Positions 3,243-14,538 of a stretch of DNA of 44,153 nucleotides are shown piece by piece. The DNA is from Promethearchaeota archaeon Loki_b31. GTDB taxonomy: Archaea > Asgardarchaeota > Lokiarchaeia > Sigyniarchaeales > SOKP01. The stretch covers positions 1 to 44,153 of the forward strand of contig NJBI01000028.1 in NCBI GenBank assembly GCA_005222975.1. Reading direction: 5' to 3'. The position numbers and the translations under genes are program-made. The notes under the pieces are model-generated. The model was not told the DNA's origin. It saw nothing but the letters and a program-made list of their open reading frames with translations, and made no database searches. Positions within the stretch are counted from its first letter, which is position 1. Every line of letters starts with the position of its first letter.

Positions 3243-4604
3243 ATGGCAATAACTACTAATTCAAATATTACATGGGTGGAAAAATACAGGCCAAAGTCAA
3301 TTAAGGAGATGGCACCACCTACTGCTAAAGTTGATGGCCACAAAGTTGATTTGACGGAAGAATTACACCGTTTTGTAGTAGACTTTTTTAAAGAAAAAAG
3401 AAAAATTAACGAATCAAATAAAAAAATTCGAGCATATAATCGAACTCACGAAGAAAAAGATCATAAAGAAGAGCTAAAATTAGCCTCTGACAAAGCAGCA
3501 GCCTTACTTGAGGGGCCTCCAGGAGTGGGGAAAACTACCATAGCATATGCTTTAGCAAATGATCTGAATATGGAGGTTGTGGAGACTAATGCCTCAGATA
3601 CTCGAACTAAAAGTGATTTAGAAGCCAAATTAAGCGAAACTACAAAATCTCGAGGGATTATGGATTTTATAGTCGAAAGTAAAAAGAAATTGATTTTAAT
3701 AGATGAAATTGACGGAATTTACGGAGTTACTGATAGAGGGGCAGTCCCAACGATATTAAAACTTATAGAAGATACGCAATTTCCTATTATTATGTGTTCT
3801 AATGAATACAAACAAAACCTTCAGTCATTATACAAGAAGGTAAGAAAATTTGAAATATATCCATTATCTAACGAAGAAGTGTCGAAAATCGCGAGAAAAA
3901 TAATTAAAAAAGAAAAGGTTTCAAACTTGAGCGAAAAAGATTTAAGCTTAATTGTTGAAAAAAATCACGGAGATTTGCGCGGAGTTATTAACGATTTGCA
4001 AGGTATAAGTCAAGGCTCTTTAGATAGGAACGCTAAAGAGTTGATTTTGAAGCTAAATAGGGATAGTACAGAAGAGATTTTTGCTTTAATTAGAGATTTA
4101 TTTCAAAAAACTAACACATTAATTGAAGCTCGAAGTTTAACGGATAAATCAGATGTAGATTATAATTTATTATATAAATGGGTAAACGAAAGCCTTCCTA
4201 CATTTATCAGAATTAACAAGGAAATCGCTCAGGCTTTAGAAAACCTATCTTTAGCAGACGAAATCTTTGGTAGAATCCGTAAAAACCAGTATTGGTCGTT
4301 ACTACCTTACTTTTACGATCTTTTTGCTGGGGGCGTTGTTTTATCAAGAAAGCGGAGAAGGGCGGATGAGGGTTTTCGTAGAATAATGTTTCCAAGGTTC
4401 ACATCTACTGGCTTTTTTTCTTTATCAGCAAATGAAAAGTTATTAGTGGAAAAAATTCAAAAGAAGTACAAAATCTCAGATATCGAAGCAGTTCAAGATT
4501 TTATCCCATTCTTAAAAATATTATGTAATTCTTCAAGGAAACAGCTGAGAGACGTAGGTGAATGGTTTGAATTGGACGCTAAAGAAAAAAAGTTTTTGAA
4601 ATAG
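3243..4604 (+). CDS. rfcL: Replication factor C large subunit
   Basis: WVEKYRP, KAALLEGPPGVGKTT, NASDTRT, LIDEIDG, GDLRGVINDLQ, C-terminal RFC-L collar (QYWSLLPY); ATG 3243 preferred over GTG 3234. Confidence 0.95.
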   Translation: MAITTNSNITWVEKYRPKSIKEMAPPTAKVDGHKVDLTEELHRFVVDFFKEKRKINESNKKIRAYNRTHEEKDHKEELKLASDKAAALLEGPPGVGKTTIAYALANDLNMEVVETNASDTRTKSDLEAKLSETTKSRGIMDFIVESKKKLILIDEIDGIYGVTDRGAVPTILKLIEDTQFPIIMCSNEYKQNLQSLYKKVRKFEIYPLSNEEVSKIARKIIKKEKVSNLSEKDLSLIVEKNHGDLRGVINDLQGISQGSLDRNAKELILKLNRDSTEEIFALIRDLFQKTNTLIEARSLTDKSDVDYNLLYKWVNESLPTFIRINKEIAQALENLSLADEIFGRIRKNQYWSLLPYFYDLFAGGVVLSRKRRRADEGFRRIMFPRFTSTGFFSLSANEKLLVEKIQKKYKISDIEAVQDFIPFLKILCNSSRKQLRDVGEWFELDAKEKKFLK

Positions 4605-7815: not shown

Positions 7816-7998
7816 TTAGGCTTCACTTTTTTTTATGATTTTAGAAAAGTCAGTTATCGTAAAACAAATAATACATACAGCTAATAAAATTGAAATATAA
7901 ATAAACGCCCAAGTATACGAAAACACGCTATATATATATCCAAAAACTAAGGCTTCCACCATACTTATAAATCCGACTGACAAATAATAGTATCCACA
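7816..7998 (-). pseudogene. Orphan 3'-terminal fragment of an MFS transporter gene (homologous to 13282-14538)
   Basis: Minus-strand translation GYYYLSVGFISMVEALVFGYIYSVFSYTWAFIYISILLAVCIICFTITDFSKIIKKSEA* matches the C-terminus of the MFS at 13291-13449 (45/53 aa identical by hand alignment); homology stops abruptly near 7998. Confidence 0.92.
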
Positions 7999-8081
7999 AA
8001 ATTTTGAAATATGCTCATTATATTCTTTTTATTAATTTTTTGATAATAATATTTAATCTTTTTTAAACATGTTTTATATTC

Positions 8082-10211
8082 ATGAAAGAAAAGGGTATAC
8101 CTCAGATCTCATATGAAATGATTCAAGAGATAACGAATCCAACTTATTTCAACCGGGGCGAGAGTTATTACAAGTCTGGAATGGTTAAAAAAGGTTGGAT
8201 TATTGAGGATGGTATAAAAGCAAAAATGAGAGGTAATTATAAACCTTATTATCTTGTAGAAATTTCTGTGTCTGATACTATGAAACTAAGAGGAAAATGT
8301 ACGTGTCCGATTGGATTTGGATGTAAACACAGCGTTGCAACTTGTTTACAATATCTTTATGAACCGGAATTTTTTATTAATAAAATTTGTGACCAAGAAT
8401 TATCTCATCTTAAAGGCTTAAAAGAAAAAGAAAAGAGAAATATAAAAGTTCCTAAAAACTATGAATTAAATCCGATTTCCGTACAAGAATGGGTTTCAAC
8501 ATTACCAATAGAAGTATTAAAGACAAGATTTATAGATCTTTGGAATCGTTTTGCTCCAACAATATTCAAAAATCTCCTAGATCCAGATTATCCTCATTAC
8601 TTTTGGTTTTCTCAACTTATTGATATATCAGATTTTATTGATTCTCGTGAAGAAGAAAACTCTAATAAATGGTTTAGACCTCTTGAGTTAATAGATTTTC
8701 TAAATGATTCTGATCTTTTTATTCCAATACTATATAATTGGACACAATCTTATATTGAATTAGGGAGGGAAATAAAGCAAGAATTCAATTCTATTGGAAT
8801 AACTGAAAATATGATTGATTTTGATCCAGAGTTTTATTTCATAGATGATAATAATGGGGATAACCATAATAGTTGGGATTATGATTATTACGATGAAAAT
8901 AATGCAGAATCGATAGCAGACGATTTTTTCTCTCAATATACAGAAATATTTGAGGAAATAGCGCACTTTTTTGGAATCTTAGTTCACAAGGACCTTTCGG
9001 ATTTGGCAAATAACCTATATGATTTTGGATTTAAGTGGTTTCTGGATTTAAATTTATCCGAACATAGGGATTATGGTTTAAACGAGTTATTTAAAAATCA
9101 AAGCAAATTTGGTGAAATAATCCAAAGTATACAAGCAAATAATTTGAAAGGGAAAAAGCGTATTGATTTTTTATTACAAATGTATTTAAAATTCAAATCG
9201 AAGAATATAAAAGAGAATATCATTAAGGAATTAAATCAATTATCAAATCAATCAGATTTAGACGAAAAAATTAAAGAAATTTGGCAGGAAATCCTTGCAA
9301 TATATAAAATTAAAATGATGAGTGAAGATTTTTTATTTTTACTTGGATTAGCTGAACAATTTTCTAAAGATAATTCTAAAACTCAATATTTGCTAAAAAA
9401 TACACTTCTTAACATTGAAAAGCACGCTGAAAATCCATATGATTTGATTCATTCCATTTTAACTAATTTTGGTGAAAAATCACTTGAAAACAGAGAATGG
9501 CTTTATGCTTTTATAATAAAAGGCAAATTTAACGATCAAAATATCATTGACGAGAAGTACAAGAATAATAAAGGCTTTCTCTGCTCCCATTGCTTTGAAT
9601 GGTTCTTCAAATATTATTTACCGAAGGGTGATATTGTTAAAATAATTGAACTCTGTAGATATGTTTTAAAACATAATCCTTTCTCTTTTGGATTTAATCA
9701 TTATTCCATGATGAAGAATTATTCCATACAAGATAGAGAGTTTGAAAAGGAAATTACTCCTTTTTTAAAATTAGATTTCTTGTCCGAATTAATTAAAAAG
9801 CGTCAATATAGTACTGCAAATAAAATTCTTCTTAATCAAAAGGATTATACTAAAGCAATATCTTTAACGCTTTTACATTATAGTGCAGATAAAGCGTGGG
9901 ATGTCATTAAAAAACTTCATATGGAGATCGTGATAAATAAATCTGATCAAGTTTTAAAAACTATATCTAAAGATGATTTTCTCTCATTAATTAAGCTTTT
10001 TAACAAATATTCAAGCGAATCAATGAAATTAAGATCTAAGCATAGACCAGATTTAAATATTTCTCAAGGTGTGCAATTATGTTTAAACCTCTATAAATAT
10101 TTTAAAATTCAATCCGAAGGAAATCAGTGGTTTTCACGATTTTGTAAAAAATATAAACGATTCCATAATTTAAGAAGTAGTCTTAAATCTCTGGGAATTG
10201 AAATGGTTTAA
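8082..10211 (+). CDS. SWIM zinc-finger domain protein with acidic tract and long helical C-terminus
   Basis: YFNRGESYY...CTCPIGFGCKH (CxC-x4-CxH) N-terminal SWIM signature. Confidence 0.85.
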   Translation: MKEKGIPQISYEMIQEITNPTYFNRGESYYKSGMVKKGWIIEDGIKAKMRGNYKPYYLVEISVSDTMKLRGKCTCPIGFGCKHSVATCLQYLYEPEFFINKICDQELSHLKGLKEKEKRNIKVPKNYELNPISVQEWVSTLPIEVLKTRFIDLWNRFAPTIFKNLLDPDYPHYFWFSQLIDISDFIDSREEENSNKWFRPLELIDFLNDSDLFIPILYNWTQSYIELGREIKQEFNSIGITENMIDFDPEFYFIDDNNGDNHNSWDYDYYDENNAESIADDFFSQYTEIFEEIAHFFGILVHKDLSDLANNLYDFGFKWFLDLNLSEHRDYGLNELFKNQSKFGEIIQSIQANNLKGKKRIDFLLQMYLKFKSKNIKENIIKELNQLSNQSDLDEKIKEIWQEILAIYKIKMMSEDFLFLLGLAEQFSKDNSKTQYLLKNTLLNIEKHAENPYDLIHSILTNFGEKSLENREWLYAFIIKGKFNDQNIIDEKYKNNKGFLCSHCFEWFFKYYLPKGDIVKIIELCRYVLKHNPFSFGFNHYSMMKNYSIQDREFEKEITPFLKLDFLSELIKKRQYSTANKILLNQKDYTKAISLTLLHYSADKAWDVIKKLHMEIVINKSDQVLKTISKDDFLSLIKLFNKYSSESMKLRSKHRPDLNISQGVQLCLNLYKYFKIQSEGNQWFSRFCKKYKRFHNLRSSLKSLGIEMV

Positions 10212-10405
10212 AAAATAAATAAGCAGAATTTAAATCATCATTACTAGCGTCGAATGGATTAATATCCATTATCGGTCATTTGAAAACCACCTTTATAAAA
10301 TCGTGTTCTCAAGTCCTGTATTCGGACATAAGACTTCCTTGTCGCACTTTTTCATTTAAATATAACCGTCATAATAAGGTAGTAAAAGAATTATGATAAT
10401 AAATT

Positions 10406-11017
10406 ATGACAGACTATATTGAAGATCCTTATATGGGATCTGAATACGATGAAATTTTTAATGATTGGTATGAAATTGAGGGAGAGAGAAAAATAAAAGA
10501 ACTTTCACGCCAACTCCGAACCTTTTTTAATTATAAGGCTGAAGTGATAAGATATCGATTTCGAATCAGTTCAAATCTGGCCGAAAATTTTACAAACACT
10601 AAATTTATTAGTCGAAAGAAAGAAATTGAATCATTAACTCATGATTTTATAACTTTGCTGAAGAGGTTAAAAAAACCCACCCAAACACTTGAGGAAGGGA
10701 TTCGATCTCTCTTTTTTAACAATGATAAAGCATGTTTTAATAAACTTTCAGCCATAACTGAGAAATTGTCCATGTTACTTCACTATTTTTCAGAGGAAAG
10801 CCTTCACAATCATCCAAAATTTCTCAAATTTAGCGTGATATTAGTACAACACCTTTGTTTGATGAAAAAATGCTTGAATGCACAATTTAGCGAATTTTTT
10901 GAGGAGCTTGAAATAAACTACAACAATTTAGAAGAAGAACTTGAAGATTTAATCGAAATCACGCCAATTAAGAAGAAACAATCAAAAAAACAATTTGAGG
11001 AGAGATTAACTTCATGA
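10406..11017 (+). CDS. Hypothetical helical protein with acidic N-terminus, coupled to downstream nuclease gene
   Basis: 203-aa ORF; its TGA overlaps the next ATG (ATGA at 11014-11017). Confidence 0.75.
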   Translation: MTDYIEDPYMGSEYDEIFNDWYEIEGERKIKELSRQLRTFFNYKAEVIRYRFRISSNLAENFTNTKFISRKKEIESLTHDFITLLKRLKKPTQTLEEGIRSLFFNNDKACFNKLSAITEKLSMLLHYFSEESLHNHPKFLKFSVILVQHLCLMKKCLNAQFSEFFEELEINYNNLEEELEDLIEITPIKKKQSKKQFEERLTS

Positions 11018-13170
11018 AAGCATATACTAACGTATCACGGAAAAATGTGGGAGAGGATCGAGTAGCAATCTGCCCAAATTTTGGATGTGAGTACATGACA
11101 CGAGTTAAACCTCTTAAATTTAGGTTCTTAGGTTTTGGTAAGCATCCTAAATGCAAGAAACATCGAATCCCTTTAGTTTATGTTGATAAAAGAATCGGTG
11201 ATTTCATGGATGCTGCCCTAGCGTGTTTTTTTGATAAAGCAGGACTTCCTCCAAGTGAATTACTCGAGGATGTAAAATCGAAATTCCCTGACGAATTTAA
11301 CTCGTTTGTAGAAGGATGGATGTATTGCATCACGGTTGGAAGAGGAGCGCCCATAGTTTCACGTTATATGGATACAATTTCAAATGCATATCTCAAGCAA
11401 TTGACCAAGAAACAAATTAAGGCACTTAAAAAAGGATATGATTCTAAGCCAAATCTCGTGAATAAAGCAATTAAGGATGGAATGGATGAAATTACTATCC
11501 AATATACGAGGATTCTCAAGCACTTGAGAGCTCATTCCGAGATCCTCGTTGATCATCAAAAACTTCAATCATTTTCTAGAAGCCTCCAAAATTACTTGAA
11601 GGATTGGCAAGAAATTATATTAAAGCGCAATGAGATCGTTAATTCTCCAGAAAACAAGCGCGAAATGACTTTAAAAGAGACCAAGTTTAATTATGATCAA
11701 ATCCTAAACATTGGCACATGTCGATCCCTTCTCGGATTAAATCCTGAAAGTAAAGAAGTAAAGAAAGCGGGATTAACCGCATTTGATAGATTTTCTGTAT
11801 ATCACGAATTTTATAGTGAAGGTTTAACTTCGAAATTTACTAAATCAGATATCAGTAACATAATTTCAGAAAGTAAATTAAATAATCATCACCAACCTGA
11901 TATAGATAAGGCTCAATGCGGTTTAAATAATAATAATATCTCATTTTTTGAAAAGTTTAAGGATCAAAATATATTTTTACAGAATTTACAAGAATTAAAT
12001 GGATTTTGCTTAGAAATGGATGATTTTAATAATAATAGTGAAAAAAGAATATTAACAATATCGGTCGAAGTAAAAGAAAAAATCTTTAATGAAGTTGGGA
12101 GGGAAATTGAAAAAATTAAAAAGGGATTAAAACCTAAATCGCTCGCAAAAATTTGGAGAGATTCTTTCCAAGATGTAATTAGTCAGAAACATTTATTAAA
12201 TATTGTTAAAGAAAGATTCTTCGAAATATATGAGAAAATCTGGGGTTCTAAAGCATTAAAGAAGCCATCAACTTATCGTAAGACCGATAGACTGCATATT
12301 GAAGATGTAGAAAAAATCATAACTGAAAAGAGAGGTAAGTTAATAAACACCTTCAGGAAAGAAAAGGATACAGAATTCTATCTTAGAATTTTATGTAAAA
12401 ATAAACATATATTTGAAATAGCAAAGAGTGAATTAAAAAGAGGAAGATGGTGTCCTAAAGAAAGTAAATCTTGTCCTAAAACTGATGAAGAACATAGAAA
12501 AGGTATAAGAGATATTATTTCTGCTAAAAATGGTACGATAATAGACTCATACAAAAAACAAGGAGATGGTGATTATTACTTTAAAATTCAATGTGATAAA
12601 AATCATATATTTATTAAGAGAAAAACAGCATTAGTTAGAGGTAGATGGTGTCCCTATTGTAATGAAGGAAAGTATGAAAAAATAATATTATGGTATTTTA
12701 GTAAAATTTTATCTCATATTATTGGAAAAAAAATTTGTTTTAAAAAAGTAATGCTTTGTAGTGTCCTTGACTGTTCTAATATTAAAAAAAAGATTCCAGA
12801 AAGATATAAAGATCTTACTATTTCTAATATGCATTTTGATGGATTCTTCAAGCTAGAAATAGGTAATCAAATATTTAATATAGTTATTGAATATCAAGGA
12901 TCTCAACATTATGAATTCCCAAATAGATTTAACGATAATACTAATAAAGGGAGAAGTGATTTTCTAAAAGCTCAGTTAGGAGACAATTTCAAAAGATGGT
13001 TAGATTTTGAAAAAAACATAATTTTGATTGAATTTCCTTATAACATAGATAAATCAATGAGTCATCCGAAGAGAATCAGAGATTTTATCGTATCAAGATT
13101 GAGACAAAAATTAAATATTAGTATTGGTCGAATTCCCGAATTCAATCATATAACGCAAGGAATATTTTAA
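11014..13170 (+). CDS. Multidomain protein: N-terminal Cys/His Zn motif, two Zn-ribbon repeats, C-terminal PD-(D/E)xK (Vsr/DUF559-like) endonuclease
   Basis: CPNFGC...HPKCKKH; repeats CKNKHIF..KRGRWCPK and CDKNHIF..VRGRWCPYC; HFDGFF...IVIEYQGSQHY...DNFK nuclease motif. Confidence 0.75.
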   Translation: MKAYTNVSRKNVGEDRVAICPNFGCEYMTRVKPLKFRFLGFGKHPKCKKHRIPLVYVDKRIGDFMDAALACFFDKAGLPPSELLEDVKSKFPDEFNSFVEGWMYCITVGRGAPIVSRYMDTISNAYLKQLTKKQIKALKKGYDSKPNLVNKAIKDGMDEITIQYTRILKHLRAHSEILVDHQKLQSFSRSLQNYLKDWQEIILKRNEIVNSPENKREMTLKETKFNYDQILNIGTCRSLLGLNPESKEVKKAGLTAFDRFSVYHEFYSEGLTSKFTKSDISNIISESKLNNHHQPDIDKAQCGLNNNNISFFEKFKDQNIFLQNLQELNGFCLEMDDFNNNSEKRILTISVEVKEKIFNEVGREIEKIKKGLKPKSLAKIWRDSFQDVISQKHLLNIVKERFFEIYEKIWGSKALKKPSTYRKTDRLHIEDVEKIITEKRGKLINTFRKEKDTEFYLRILCKNKHIFEIAKSELKRGRWCPKESKSCPKTDEEHRKGIRDIISAKNGTIIDSYKKQGDGDYYFKIQCDKNHIFIKRKTALVRGRWCPYCNEGKYEKIILWYFSKILSHIIGKKICFKKVMLCSVLDCSNIKKKIPERYKDLTISNMHFDGFFKLEIGNQIFNIVIEYQGSQHYEFPNRFNDNTNKGRSDFLKAQLGDNFKRWLDFEKNIILIEFPYNIDKSMSHPKRIRDFIVSRLRQKLNISIGRIPEFNHITQGIF

Positions 13171-13281
13171 AATGTTTTAAGAAAACAATGTAATTAAACT
13201 ATACTCCCCCGACAAAAAAATCTAACTAATAATTTGTTAAATTAACTTTTTTTTTCATTAATTTCAAGTACTCTTTTGGTT

Positions 13282-14538
13282 TTAAAACGATATTTTAGAA
13301 AAATCTGTAATCGCGAAGATAACAATACATACTGCTAACAGAATTGAAATGTAAATAAACGCCCAAGTAAACGAGAATGCGTCATATAAATAGCCGAAGA
13401 TCAAAGCCTCAACCATACTAATGAATCCAACCGATAAATAGTAATACCCATAAGCTCGTCCTCTTTTTTCTTCACCTGCTAGGTCAGCTATAAATGCTCT
13501 TGAGATTGGATCCACAGAGGCTAGGTAAAAGCCGTGCATGATGTAAATTACAATAATTAAAACTATTGAAAAAAGAGAGACTTCAATAGGAAAAGCTAAA
13601 ATAACACAAGATAGTAGTAATATCGATAATCCGATCACGATCATCGGTTTTCGGCCAATTTTATCGGACAAGGAGCCATTTATTGGAGAAAAAATTGTAT
13701 AAACTATGTTCAATATAAGATAAAAAACAGGTATAAGGTAAATTAAATTGGAAGGAATATAGTCTAATGCTCTAATAATTAAAAATACGACATCTAAACT
13801 GGCAAATTCAATAACTCCAAGAATAACGATTAATTTTATGAAATTTTTATCAATCTTTTCACTCTTTTCTTTTCTAATTTTTTTCCCAAGTTTTTTATCT
13901 AACTCTTCTGGAGAAACATCTTTAACTGGAAGAATTAGGGCAATTGCAATACATCCAGGAATTATTGAGAAAAATATTATTTGTGAATAGCTCCATGCGT
14001 AAAATAATAAAAGAAATGCAAGTAATGAGCCAAGAACCGCTCCTAATGTATCCATAGCACGATGCAATCCAAATGCCTTTCCTTTTTTAGTAGCGTAAAA
14101 AGAAATAAGAGCGTCTCTCGAAGATGTTCTCAATCCTTTACCTACTCGATCTGTTGCTTTTAACCCTAAAACCATTTCCCATGAAGGACTCAACCCTATT
14201 AATGGTTTTGAAAGGTTCGATAAGGAATATCCAGCTACAATAAAAGGTTTTCTTTTGTTTATTTTATCGCTCATCCAGCCGGTAATTCCTTTTAAAATGT
14301 TCGCAATAGCATTTGTAATTCCTGAAATTAGCCCTAAAATTAGCACACTTCCTCCAATTTCTAAAATAAACAAAGGTAATATGCTTTGAATGCTTTCGCT
14401 AGAAATATCTGTAAACAATGATACTAATCCCATCAAAAATACTGGAATTGAAACTCCAAATATCATTCTTCGTCTTTTTATTGATTTACCAATTGTTTGG
14501 CTATTTGTAGGTTTTTTTTCTTCTTTGCTCATAATCAA
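13282..14538 (-). CDS. MFS transporter
   Basis: About 12 TM segments; motif A twice (GWMSDKINKRK, GSLSDKIGRK); DRVGKGLRTSSRDALI, AFGLHRAMDTLGA. Confidence 0.95.
   Translation of the reverse strand: MIMSKEEKKPTNSQTIGKSIKRRRMIFGVSIPVFLMGLVSLFTDISSESIQSILPLFILEIGGSVLILGLISGITNAIANILKGITGWMSDKINKRKPFIVAGYSLSNLSKPLIGLSPSWEMVLGLKATDRVGKGLRTSSRDALISFYATKKGKAFGLHRAMDTLGAVLGSLLAFLLLFYAWSYSQIIFFSIIPGCIAIALILPVKDVSPEELDKKLGKKIRKEKSEKIDKNFIKLIVILGVIEFASLDVVFLIIRALDYIPSNLIYLIPVFYLILNIVYTIFSPINGSLSDKIGRKPMIVIGLSILLLSCVILAFPIEVSLFSIVLIIVIYIMHGFYLASVDPISRAFIADLAGEEKRGRAYGYYYLSVGFISMVEALIFGYLYDAFSFTWAFIYISILLAVCIVIFAITDFSKISF

Follow-up and report, generated by a model that had tools for sequence, protein, structure and literature searches.

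A two-gene cassette with exchangeable nuclease tails as the probable core of a site-specific selfish element in a Lokiarchaeia genome

The window analysed here is contig NJBI01000028.1 of Promethearchaeota archaeon Loki_b31 (assembly GCA_005222975.1), 44,153 nt in length. On its + strand, two open reading frames (ORFs) that overlap by ATGA encode proteins of 203 aa (10406..11017) and 718 aa (11014..13170), as a first reading made from the letters alone (the sequence-only reading) had described them. We take this gene pair to be the probable core of a selfish element that inserts site-specifically and is of the free-standing homing-endonuclease type. The observations behind this are modularity, copy number, insertion polymorphism, replacement of a host gene end, a nuclease fold and purifying selection. 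We place the element among free-standing homing endonucleases in particular because its tails are of homing type with conserved catalytic residues, the same tail recurs at the same site, copy number is patchy and a degenerate copy exists. In the following, loci are labelled L0xx, genomes G0xx (G000 is the window's genome) and contigs Cxx.

From homologue counts and substitution rates, chance ORFs are ruled out for both proteins, since each has more than 100 homologues (189 matches for the N-terminal query of the 718-aa protein and 225 for its 203-aa partner) and the ratio of nonsynonymous to synonymous substitution rates (dN/dS) is 0.16-0.6 in all modules. The same values place all modules under purifying selection. 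Neither protein has a significant Pfam or NCBIfam match, a PADLOC match or a PDB sequence match.

Insertion at host gene ends

The cassette stands between an MFS gene and orf6534. In 12 of 12 congeners this site is empty: the two genes converge on a gap of about 50 nt that contains no insert, and the junction joins ...ATAATATCCA to TAGGCTCGTCC.... In the window, the two copies of a 162-nt direct repeat (7838-7999 and 13292-13453; 77% nucleotide and 85% amino-acid identity) bracket a SWIM gene, the partner gene and the nuclease gene. The first copy (copy A) barely differs from the one copy that congeners have at their empty sites. The second (copy A') is fused in frame to the MFS body, leaving the MFS ORF at full length, and differs from every congener at many synonymous sites. 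Judging from these alignments, copy A represents the native 3' end of MFS, which the insertion has severed from the rest of the gene, and copy A' is a foreign, recoded substitute brought by the element.

Only three proteins are encoded in the insertion (about 7996-13453), namely the SWIM protein, the partner and the nuclease fusion. The left junction of the insertion lies between TATCCA and CAAAATTTTG, and its right end merges into the MFS body near 13440-13453. The mobile unit exceeds the gene pair named by the sequence-only reading, because the 709-aa SWIM gene and the substitute MFS 3' end are included. No recombinase of the tyrosine, serine, DDE or HUH type in the insertion was matched in Pfam, NCBIfam or PHROGs, and fold searches found the N-terminal domain of the 718-aa protein unlike known recombinases. 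Neither terminal inverted repeats nor shared end motifs beyond the promoter block were seen. The SWIM match of the 709-aa protein is weak and below the Pfam cut-off; only its first ~95 residues resemble PADLOC PDC-S62 and DpdE. This gene is single copy in the genome, has a dN/dS of 0.24, and is present in the window and at L045 and absent from the two-gene version at L046.

Precise presence/absence polymorphism was found in all family members tested (5 of 5). For example, the unit at L009 (3320 nt) comprises the two genes and, besides them, only a diverged duplicate of the end of the adjacent gene; G017 and G043 have it, at least 10 congeners precisely lack it, and its foreign copy resembles alleles of other species in the genus and is unfused to the gene. 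G017 and G021 have the L010 element, which is missing in G005 and G043; at this locus it is the upstream 199-aa gene that has a foreign substitute end fused to it, and its displaced native end lies downstream. The L011 element is found in G005 and G017 and is absent in many others, and L013, of a distant subfamily with ~38% N-domain identity, is absent in G005, G009, G043, G011 and others. A copy of the L013 type at L058 (G017 C46:50500-59500) has lost the partner, the N-domain and ~120 aa of the tail through a 1990-nt internal deletion, while its remaining tail frame is open (aa 409-955, 93% identical); L058 may be either a decaying copy or a tail-only derivative. Moreover, the three-gene element of the window (7993-13172) recurs in an independent metagenome contig, L045, at a different site and with 88.5% nucleotide identity; its left terminus is as in the window and its right end is at the nuclease stop codon. 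At L046 a two-gene version adjoins orf6534, and the same tail occurs at the same chromosomal site in different species.

Of 121 sampled genomes of the phylum, 4 have the N-domain, the window's included, and these are from 2 genera of one family. Copies per genome range from 0 to 8, and several complete congeners have 0. Selfish, defence and toxin-antitoxin roles had stood side by side in the sequence-only reading; the selfish one is favoured because all five tested members are polymorphic for presence and a host gene end is replaced, and the other two gained no specific support.

Two side observations concern the neighbourhood of the L010 and L011 cassettes on contig C46 of the window's genome. 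At L010:12412-14490, two 83-nt copies (94% identical) of the target-gene end found beside the neighbouring cassette enclose a 692-aa ORF whose N-terminus has a membrane-like segment; this ORF is missing from that site in G021, is found elsewhere in several congeners, and looks like a second, unrelated insertion at the same spot. At L011, an 85-nt repeat (3478-3562 and 8059-8143; 80% identical, with a 20-nt identical core TCAAATCGACAACCTTAAAT) sits upstream of the cassette and upstream of a neighbouring 322-aa gene. It may be a duplicated promoter region and not a gene end, because it is apparently non-coding and has a TATA-like stretch. The 322-aa gene was considered as cargo and rejected as a native neighbour.

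Table 1. Features of the element and its flanks in the window
Feature	Position	Strand	Evidence
Displaced native MFS 3' end (copy A)	7838..7999	-	162-nt direct repeat, congener alignment
Inserted mobile element, ~5.45 kb	7996..13453	+	Empty sites in congeners, junction alignment
709-aa SWIM zinc-finger protein gene	8082..10211	+	Weak SWIM match
Conserved upstream block of cassette	10279..10405	+	Paralogue DNA similarity, alignment of 8 upstream regions
203-aa partner gene, without known family	10406..11017	+	225 homologues
Constant N-domain (aa 1-285), zinc ribbon then all-alpha domain	11014..11868	+	Alignments, AlphaFold2 model
Asn-rich low-complexity linker, module boundary and likely recombination breakpoint	11869..12048	+	Paralogue similarity ends; L046 comparison
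Helical module of ~66 aa (aa 347-415)	12052..12258	+	Match to repeats of 671-aa protein
Two Zn-ribbon (treble-clef-like) repeats, aa 455-497 and 521-552	12376..12669	+	Motif positions, model
Predicted Vsr-like PD-(D/E)xK nuclease domain, aa 551-703 (E555, D609, E626, H632, D657)	12664..13122	+	VIA-align, PHROG, conservation
Element-borne substitute MFS 3' end (copy A')	13282..13453	-	Repeat identity, congener alignment

A constant module with exchangeable tails

Searching with aa 1-300 of the 718-aa protein, a query that covers the 285-residue N-domain, gave 189 proteins, with the domain N-terminal in all of them. Those whose source is named all come from Promethearchaeota, Lokiarchaeota or Helarchaeota assemblies. 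Among the 120 matches listed of these 189, identity over the N-domain is 58-86%, protein length varies from 404 to 1154 aa, and the remainder contains differing Pfam domains. An N-domain profile run against 1.84 billion representative proteins returned 103 matches and no distant relatives, the domain being N-terminal wherever the N-terminus of the protein is present. No viral copy of the N-domain was found in a scan of IMG/VR.

The window's genome alone contains 8 copies on six contigs. These paralogues have the partner and aa 1-285 in common (37-83% identity), and their tails are mostly unrelated; similarity ends at about aa 285, except in two pairs with related tails. A partner homologue of 203-219 aa lies immediately upstream, overlapping or abutting, in 8 of 8 paralogues, and a partner is upstream in 17 of 17 copies examined (the 8 own copies and nine from three other genomes, G054, G007 and G016). 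Nearly all of the 225 partner homologues are 198-204 aa long and none carries a Pfam domain; a feature search of the ESM Atlas with the partner found nothing. Taken together, these comparisons support a constant module, made up of N-domain and partner, that is common to all family members whatever their nuclease type. The sequence-only reading had proposed a conserved N-terminal carrier and partner with exchangeable C-terminal modules, and the aa 1-300 search bears this out, with at least 12 unrelated tail classes among the 120 listed. It had also named what would tell against it, namely single-copy, syntenic homologues of invariant domain content or a C-terminal domain of another fold. What we found is eight non-syntenic paralogues with different tails, the partner directly upstream each time, and a C-terminal domain that models as PD-(D/E)xK.

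At the DNA level, similarity among paralogues starts 58-127 nt 5' of the partner ATG, and the conserved upstream block contains a TATA-like box, TTTAAATA, at 10355-10362.

The N-domain begins with a small zinc ribbon. The motifs noticed by eye, CPNFGC and HPKCKKH, start at aa 20 and aa 44, and C20, C25, C47 and H50 (C-x4-C...C-x2-H) are invariant in 68 family members. In the AlphaFold2 (AF2) model (mean predicted local distance difference test score, pLDDT, 90.8; predicted template modelling score, pTM, 0.87), the zinc ribbon is followed by about eleven helices. Foldseek searches of PDB and BFVD with this model gave nothing at E < 0.2, and a wide search with the exhaustive aligner VIA-align gave generic helical bundles only (best Z 6.4). 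In the ESM Atlas, the shape search reached template modelling (TM) scores of at most 0.29 and the feature search gave no usable match. A TniQ row in the ESM Atlas search (TM 0.22/0.33) was too weak and was not used. The idea of a TFIIB-like Zn-ribbon with a cyclin fold is unsupported by every fold search, its only trace being a sub-threshold TFIIB-repeat match in one unrelated tail.

For the complex of partner and N-domain, the predicted interface score ipSAE is 0.79-0.80 in three runs, compared with 0.00 for the best control. The mark used for this score is reached by 58 of 80 solved complexes and by 2 of 110 mismatched pairs, a calibration that holds only roughly here because our own alignments were used for the complex models. 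The runs agree in at least 80% of contacts, the partner has a pLDDT of 74, and the predicted interface, with aa 160-172 of the N-domain and aa 33-48 and 163-171 of the partner, includes many of the most conserved residues of both proteins. These models support an interaction in which the partner binds the N-domain.

The tails of the 120 listed homologues form 12 clusters by single linkage, or 17 when 50% coverage is required. Recognised domains in them are HNH_3, LAGLIDADG_3, four DUF4379 Zn-ribbons, PDDEXK_5, RNase_T and tandem winged helix-turn-helix (wHTH), and some Pfam-blank tails match PHROG HNH or homing-endonuclease families. In one tail class (metagenome homologues P0033, P0037, P0051 and P0100), LAGLIDADG_3 is nested in an intein splicing domain that stops ~19 residues before the C-terminus; this would be an intein or Hint module within a mobile element's own protein. 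The most divergent full-length member, P0187 (1919 aa, metagenome), is far larger than other family members and has the N-domain on a 1650-aa tail without clear domains.

In the window, the tail follows the Asn-rich linker, which is present after aa 285 as noted before. Two Zn-ribbon repeats are confirmed, C461-x3-H...RGRWC480 and C527-x3-H...RGRWC546-x2-C549; their period had been put at ~53 aa, and the start-to-start distance is in fact 66 aa. In the first repeat, said before to lack the last Cys, C-x6-C stands instead of C-x2-C. Relatives of this tail match Pfam DUF4379, and aa 440-718 give matches (E 1.4e-11 and 3.1e-9) to two PHROG families whose annotation is HNH or homing endonuclease. 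The AF2 model of the C-terminal 279 residues (pLDDT 84.6) consists of two three-stranded Zn-ribbon units and an alpha/beta domain. Foldseek against PDB gave no match for this model; a Vsr-like fold was recovered by VIA-align alone, Foldseek having missed the domain. Domains of the Vsr type of PD-(D/E)xK head its ranking: the top row is the FAST1-FAST2-RAP module of FASTKD4 (Z 9.0), followed by Vsr (1cw0; Z 8.7, root-mean-square deviation (rmsd) 3.3, 116 residues aligned) and the homing endonuclease I-Bth0305I (3r3p; Z 8.0, rmsd 2.8, 98 of 98 residues aligned). The other rows are mostly PD-(D/E)xK nucleases and some are not, and the Z values are moderate.

The nuclease motif pointed out earlier is in place, with FDG at aa 608 and EYQG at aa 626. 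Among 14 relatives of 21-93% identity, D609, E626, H632 and D657 are invariant and E555 is nearly so. Compared by order along the sequence, these five residues fit the EDxHD motif, which is defined for the I-Bth0305I family and has D51, H69 and D97 as its Vsr counterparts (PMC3239194). The structural alignments to Vsr and I-Bth0305I support the earlier proposal that the window tail is a Vsr-like PD-(D/E)xK nuclease.

Between the linker and the Zn-ribbons, the helical module at aa 347-415 matches a series of four tandem repeats, each 66-67 aa long, in a 671-aa protein encoded on contig C97, and it is probably DNA-binding. That protein (G000 C97:2784-4799) consists mostly of such tandem helical repeats, and the ~66-aa repeat is probably a modular DNA-binding unit common to the endonuclease-like proteins of this genome. 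Relatives of the tail without N-domain or partner are found at C94:26194-27549, C92:858-2342, C75:125731-127746 and C8:23914-24516 of G000; they carry helical repeats, the Zn-ribbon and a Vsr-like EY(D/N)GxxH nuclease, the C8 copy being a 200-aa fragment. A search for short stand-alone relatives of the tail returned 3 proteins only.

Evidence on exchange between tails and constant modules comes from phylogeny and from substitution rates. On a tree of 114 N-domain sequences, the 17 tail classes require 35 changes, compared with a minimum of 16 and a mean of 79 after shuffling. Strongly supported sister N-domains carry different tails, for example intein/LAGLIDADG beside RNase_T. Between the window and L046, the synonymous divergence (dS) is 0.057 in the tail and 0.478 in the N-domain, and a 90-nt indel lies in the linker, where identity changes from 88% to 97%. 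For the window against L045, dS is 0.105 for the SWIM gene, 0.171 for the partner, 0.523 for the N-domain and 0.72 for the tail. These comparisons support reshuffling of tails and constant modules, with a likely breakpoint in the low-complexity linker.

The first part of the gene was correctly seen to be less AT-rich than the rest: the N-domain has a GC content of 0.357 and a third-codon-position GC content (GC3) of 0.305, the tail 0.261 and 0.178, and the genome mean is 0.315. Tail GC is lower in 7 of 8 paralogues and GC3 clearly lower in 5 of 8, with little or no step in the three most distant ones. The compositional step from N-domain to tail is more than an amino-acid effect.

Proposed mechanism and rival explanations

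In the homing-endonuclease reading, the variable tail would recognise and cut one chromosomal site; in the window, recognition and cutting would fall to the helical module, the two Zn-ribbons and the Vsr-like nuclease. Double-strand-break repair of the host would then copy the cassette from the occupied allele into the cut one, co-carrying neighbouring target sequence of the donor lineage. At the MFS locus, the co-carried tract would be the recoded and presumably uncleavable 3' end, by which the MFS gene is kept intact, and the native end would be left stranded beyond the element. The 203-aa partner would bind the constant Zn-ribbon/all-alpha N-domain of 285 aa, and this scaffold may assemble single-active-site nucleases for cuts on both strands, restrain toxicity or engage host repair. 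We favour a role of the constant module as an accessory scaffold or regulator rather than as the catalytic part. Reshuffling at the low-complexity linker could then yield new target specificities.

Several points weigh against this account. Cleavage and the homing route, like the role of the constant module, are steps that we infer, and the target site is deduced from the junctions only. The 285-aa domain and the partner are without counterpart in known homing endonucleases, and the strong conservation of the domain suggests a role more central than that of a scaffold. In several tail classes no nuclease domain can be recognised. An identical left terminus at two unrelated sites would be more typical of insertion by a transposase or recombinase than of repair-mediated capture. 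Flanking target duplication is found at 4 of the 8 copies in the window's genome; there is none at L012-L015 and none clear at the 9 copies elsewhere. Moreover, all data are metagenome-assembled genomes, and the assembly of the window's genome has a completeness of 92% and a contamination of 6%.

Some of these points lead to a rival in which the constant module is itself a new integration or recombination machinery, the tails are interchangeable target recognition, insertion is site-specific and the element-borne target copy acts as the attP arm. We regard it as unlikely. In its favour, no part is more strongly conserved than the constant module (dN/dS 0.16), which every copy has; the left terminus is defined at two different sites, the right end is often the nuclease stop codon, and the insertion contains no recognisable integrase. 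The order native copy, element, foreign copy, flank is also that of integrases that target gene 3' ends, of which phage 21 and e14 in icd are an example, and N-domain residues D74, K224, Y227-D228 and Y263 are conserved outside the predicted partner interface. However, a Zn-ribbon followed by an all-alpha domain is unlike tyrosine and serine recombinases, DDE and HUH enzymes; the junctions share only ~3-10 nt of identity with no consistent core; and the side of the cassette on which the foreign copy lies varies by locus. The tail nucleases also retain catalytic residues that would be needless for targeting alone, and the copy without an N-domain keeps its tail frame open. A new kind of mobility module formed by the partner/N-domain heterocomplex, either as a new strand-transfer enzyme or as an adaptor that hijacks archaeal break repair, seems improbable to us. 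If it were true, any sequence-specific nuclease or DNA-binding tail would become a targeted insertion device, a natural plug-and-play means of inserting genes site-specifically, in the archaea that are nearest to eukaryotes.

Very unlikely, in our judgement, is a conflict system (defence, toxin-antitoxin or polymorphic-toxin-like) whose nuclease effectors are exchangeable and whose inhibitor or antitoxin is the partner; such a system would not move by itself and would ride on islands moved otherwise. A constant N-terminus, variable nucleases and a small helical partner do recall polymorphic toxins of the LXG/Lap type, the SWIM protein resembles the N-terminus of PADLOC PDC-S62 and DpdE, and the distribution is patchy. 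Set against this, neither the 203-aa nor the 718-aa protein has a PADLOC match, no signal, secretion or trafficking family was detected, and no conserved immunity gene lies downstream at the 8 loci. There, downstream genes differ at all loci, bar weak similarity between two, and the downstream neighbour of the window's cassette is the opposite-strand MFS gene. The inserted unit at L009 is two genes alone with no other mobility gene, the tails (LAGLIDADG, intein, HNH_3, Zn-ribbon with Vsr-like nuclease, wHTH) are of the sequence-specific homing type and not unspecific toxins, and the same tail sits at the same chromosomal site across species. Old and immobile insertions, left by a lineage-specific expansion of domesticated regulators whose nuclease-derived tails bind DNA and whose constant module recruits a cofactor, would accord with purifying selection on all modules, with tails that carry wHTH or lack a recognisable nuclease, and with the cassette's own conserved promoter. 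We consider this highly improbable, because 5 of 5 members are absent at precise empty sites with flanks more than 90% identical, many complete congeners have zero copies, the catalytic residues are conserved, and the foreign target copies point to recent horizontal arrival.

Significance and comparison with known systems

Elements of this kind would rewrite host gene ends with alleles of other lineages, a fine-scale form of horizontal transfer, and such rewriting may cause artefacts when Asgard genomes are annotated or used for phylogeny. The precise presence/absence pattern could be useful as strain markers, and the swappable linker boundary would be a natural design for retargeting. If the role of the constant module is worked out, it may prove to be a common helper for unrelated nucleases or a new insertion mechanism. 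Literature searches for an account of such elements in Asgard archaea or Lokiarchaeota found none. Aloposons and the HeimM/HeimV elements are unrelated to the cassette.

Most known homing endonuclease genes belong to introns, inteins, phages or organelles, and to our knowledge each homing endonuclease family has its own architecture. In LXG/Lap, Rhs and CDI polymorphic toxins, a constant N-terminal part with helper proteins is combined with variable C-terminal nucleases. The cassette has a constant N-terminus, exchangeable nucleases and a helical partner predicted to sit on the constant part, but it differs from these toxins in having no secretion signal or apparatus, no downstream immunity gene, tails of homing type, and a unit that is itself inserted DNA.

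T4 Seg and Mob are free-standing phage homing endonucleases. Enzymes of this class (see PMC10055350) resemble the cassette in that they stand alone next to or between host genes, use break repair to spread while flanking markers are co-converted, and combine a nuclease with DNA-binding modules. However, they are phage-borne single genes without an accessory module across nuclease families. I-Bth0305I (EDxHD; PMC3239194) has, like the model of the window tail, a Vsr-like fold, and the conserved residues of the window tail, putatively of the E...D...H...D type, come after separate DNA-binding modules. I-Bth0305I is intron- or intein-encoded with NUMOD/HTH modules, and has no Zn-ribbon repeats, 285-aa N-domain or partner. 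In sequence, the window tail is similar to homing endonucleases only through the two PHROG families mentioned above.

The closest parallel in gene-end replacement is with the mORFs of fungal mitochondria, which make gene hybrids in Allomyces macrogynus (atp6) and Glomus (atp6, atp9, cox2 and nad3); in Allomyces the endonuclease has been shown to drive mobility (PMC3630166). Like the cassette, mORFs are free-standing endonuclease ORFs in or beside the 3' end of a host gene, with a diverged, horizontally acquired C-terminus fused in frame and the native C-terminus beyond the ORF, near-identical to that of relatives. We read the MFS locus as mORF-like because it combines a foreign gene end, an endonuclease ORF and a displaced native end near-identical to relatives. 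Unlike mORFs, the cassette is found in an archaeal chromosome, comprises two or three genes rather than one, has a constant partner and N-domain in every copy, draws on nuclease families beyond LAGLIDADG and GIY-YIG, and sometimes leaves its foreign copy unfused (L009). From the above, two aspects are new. The cassette is multi-copy and, from congener comparison, mobile and recently gained and lost in Asgard archaeal chromosomes, and one constant two-protein module is kept across elements with at least five nuclease families.

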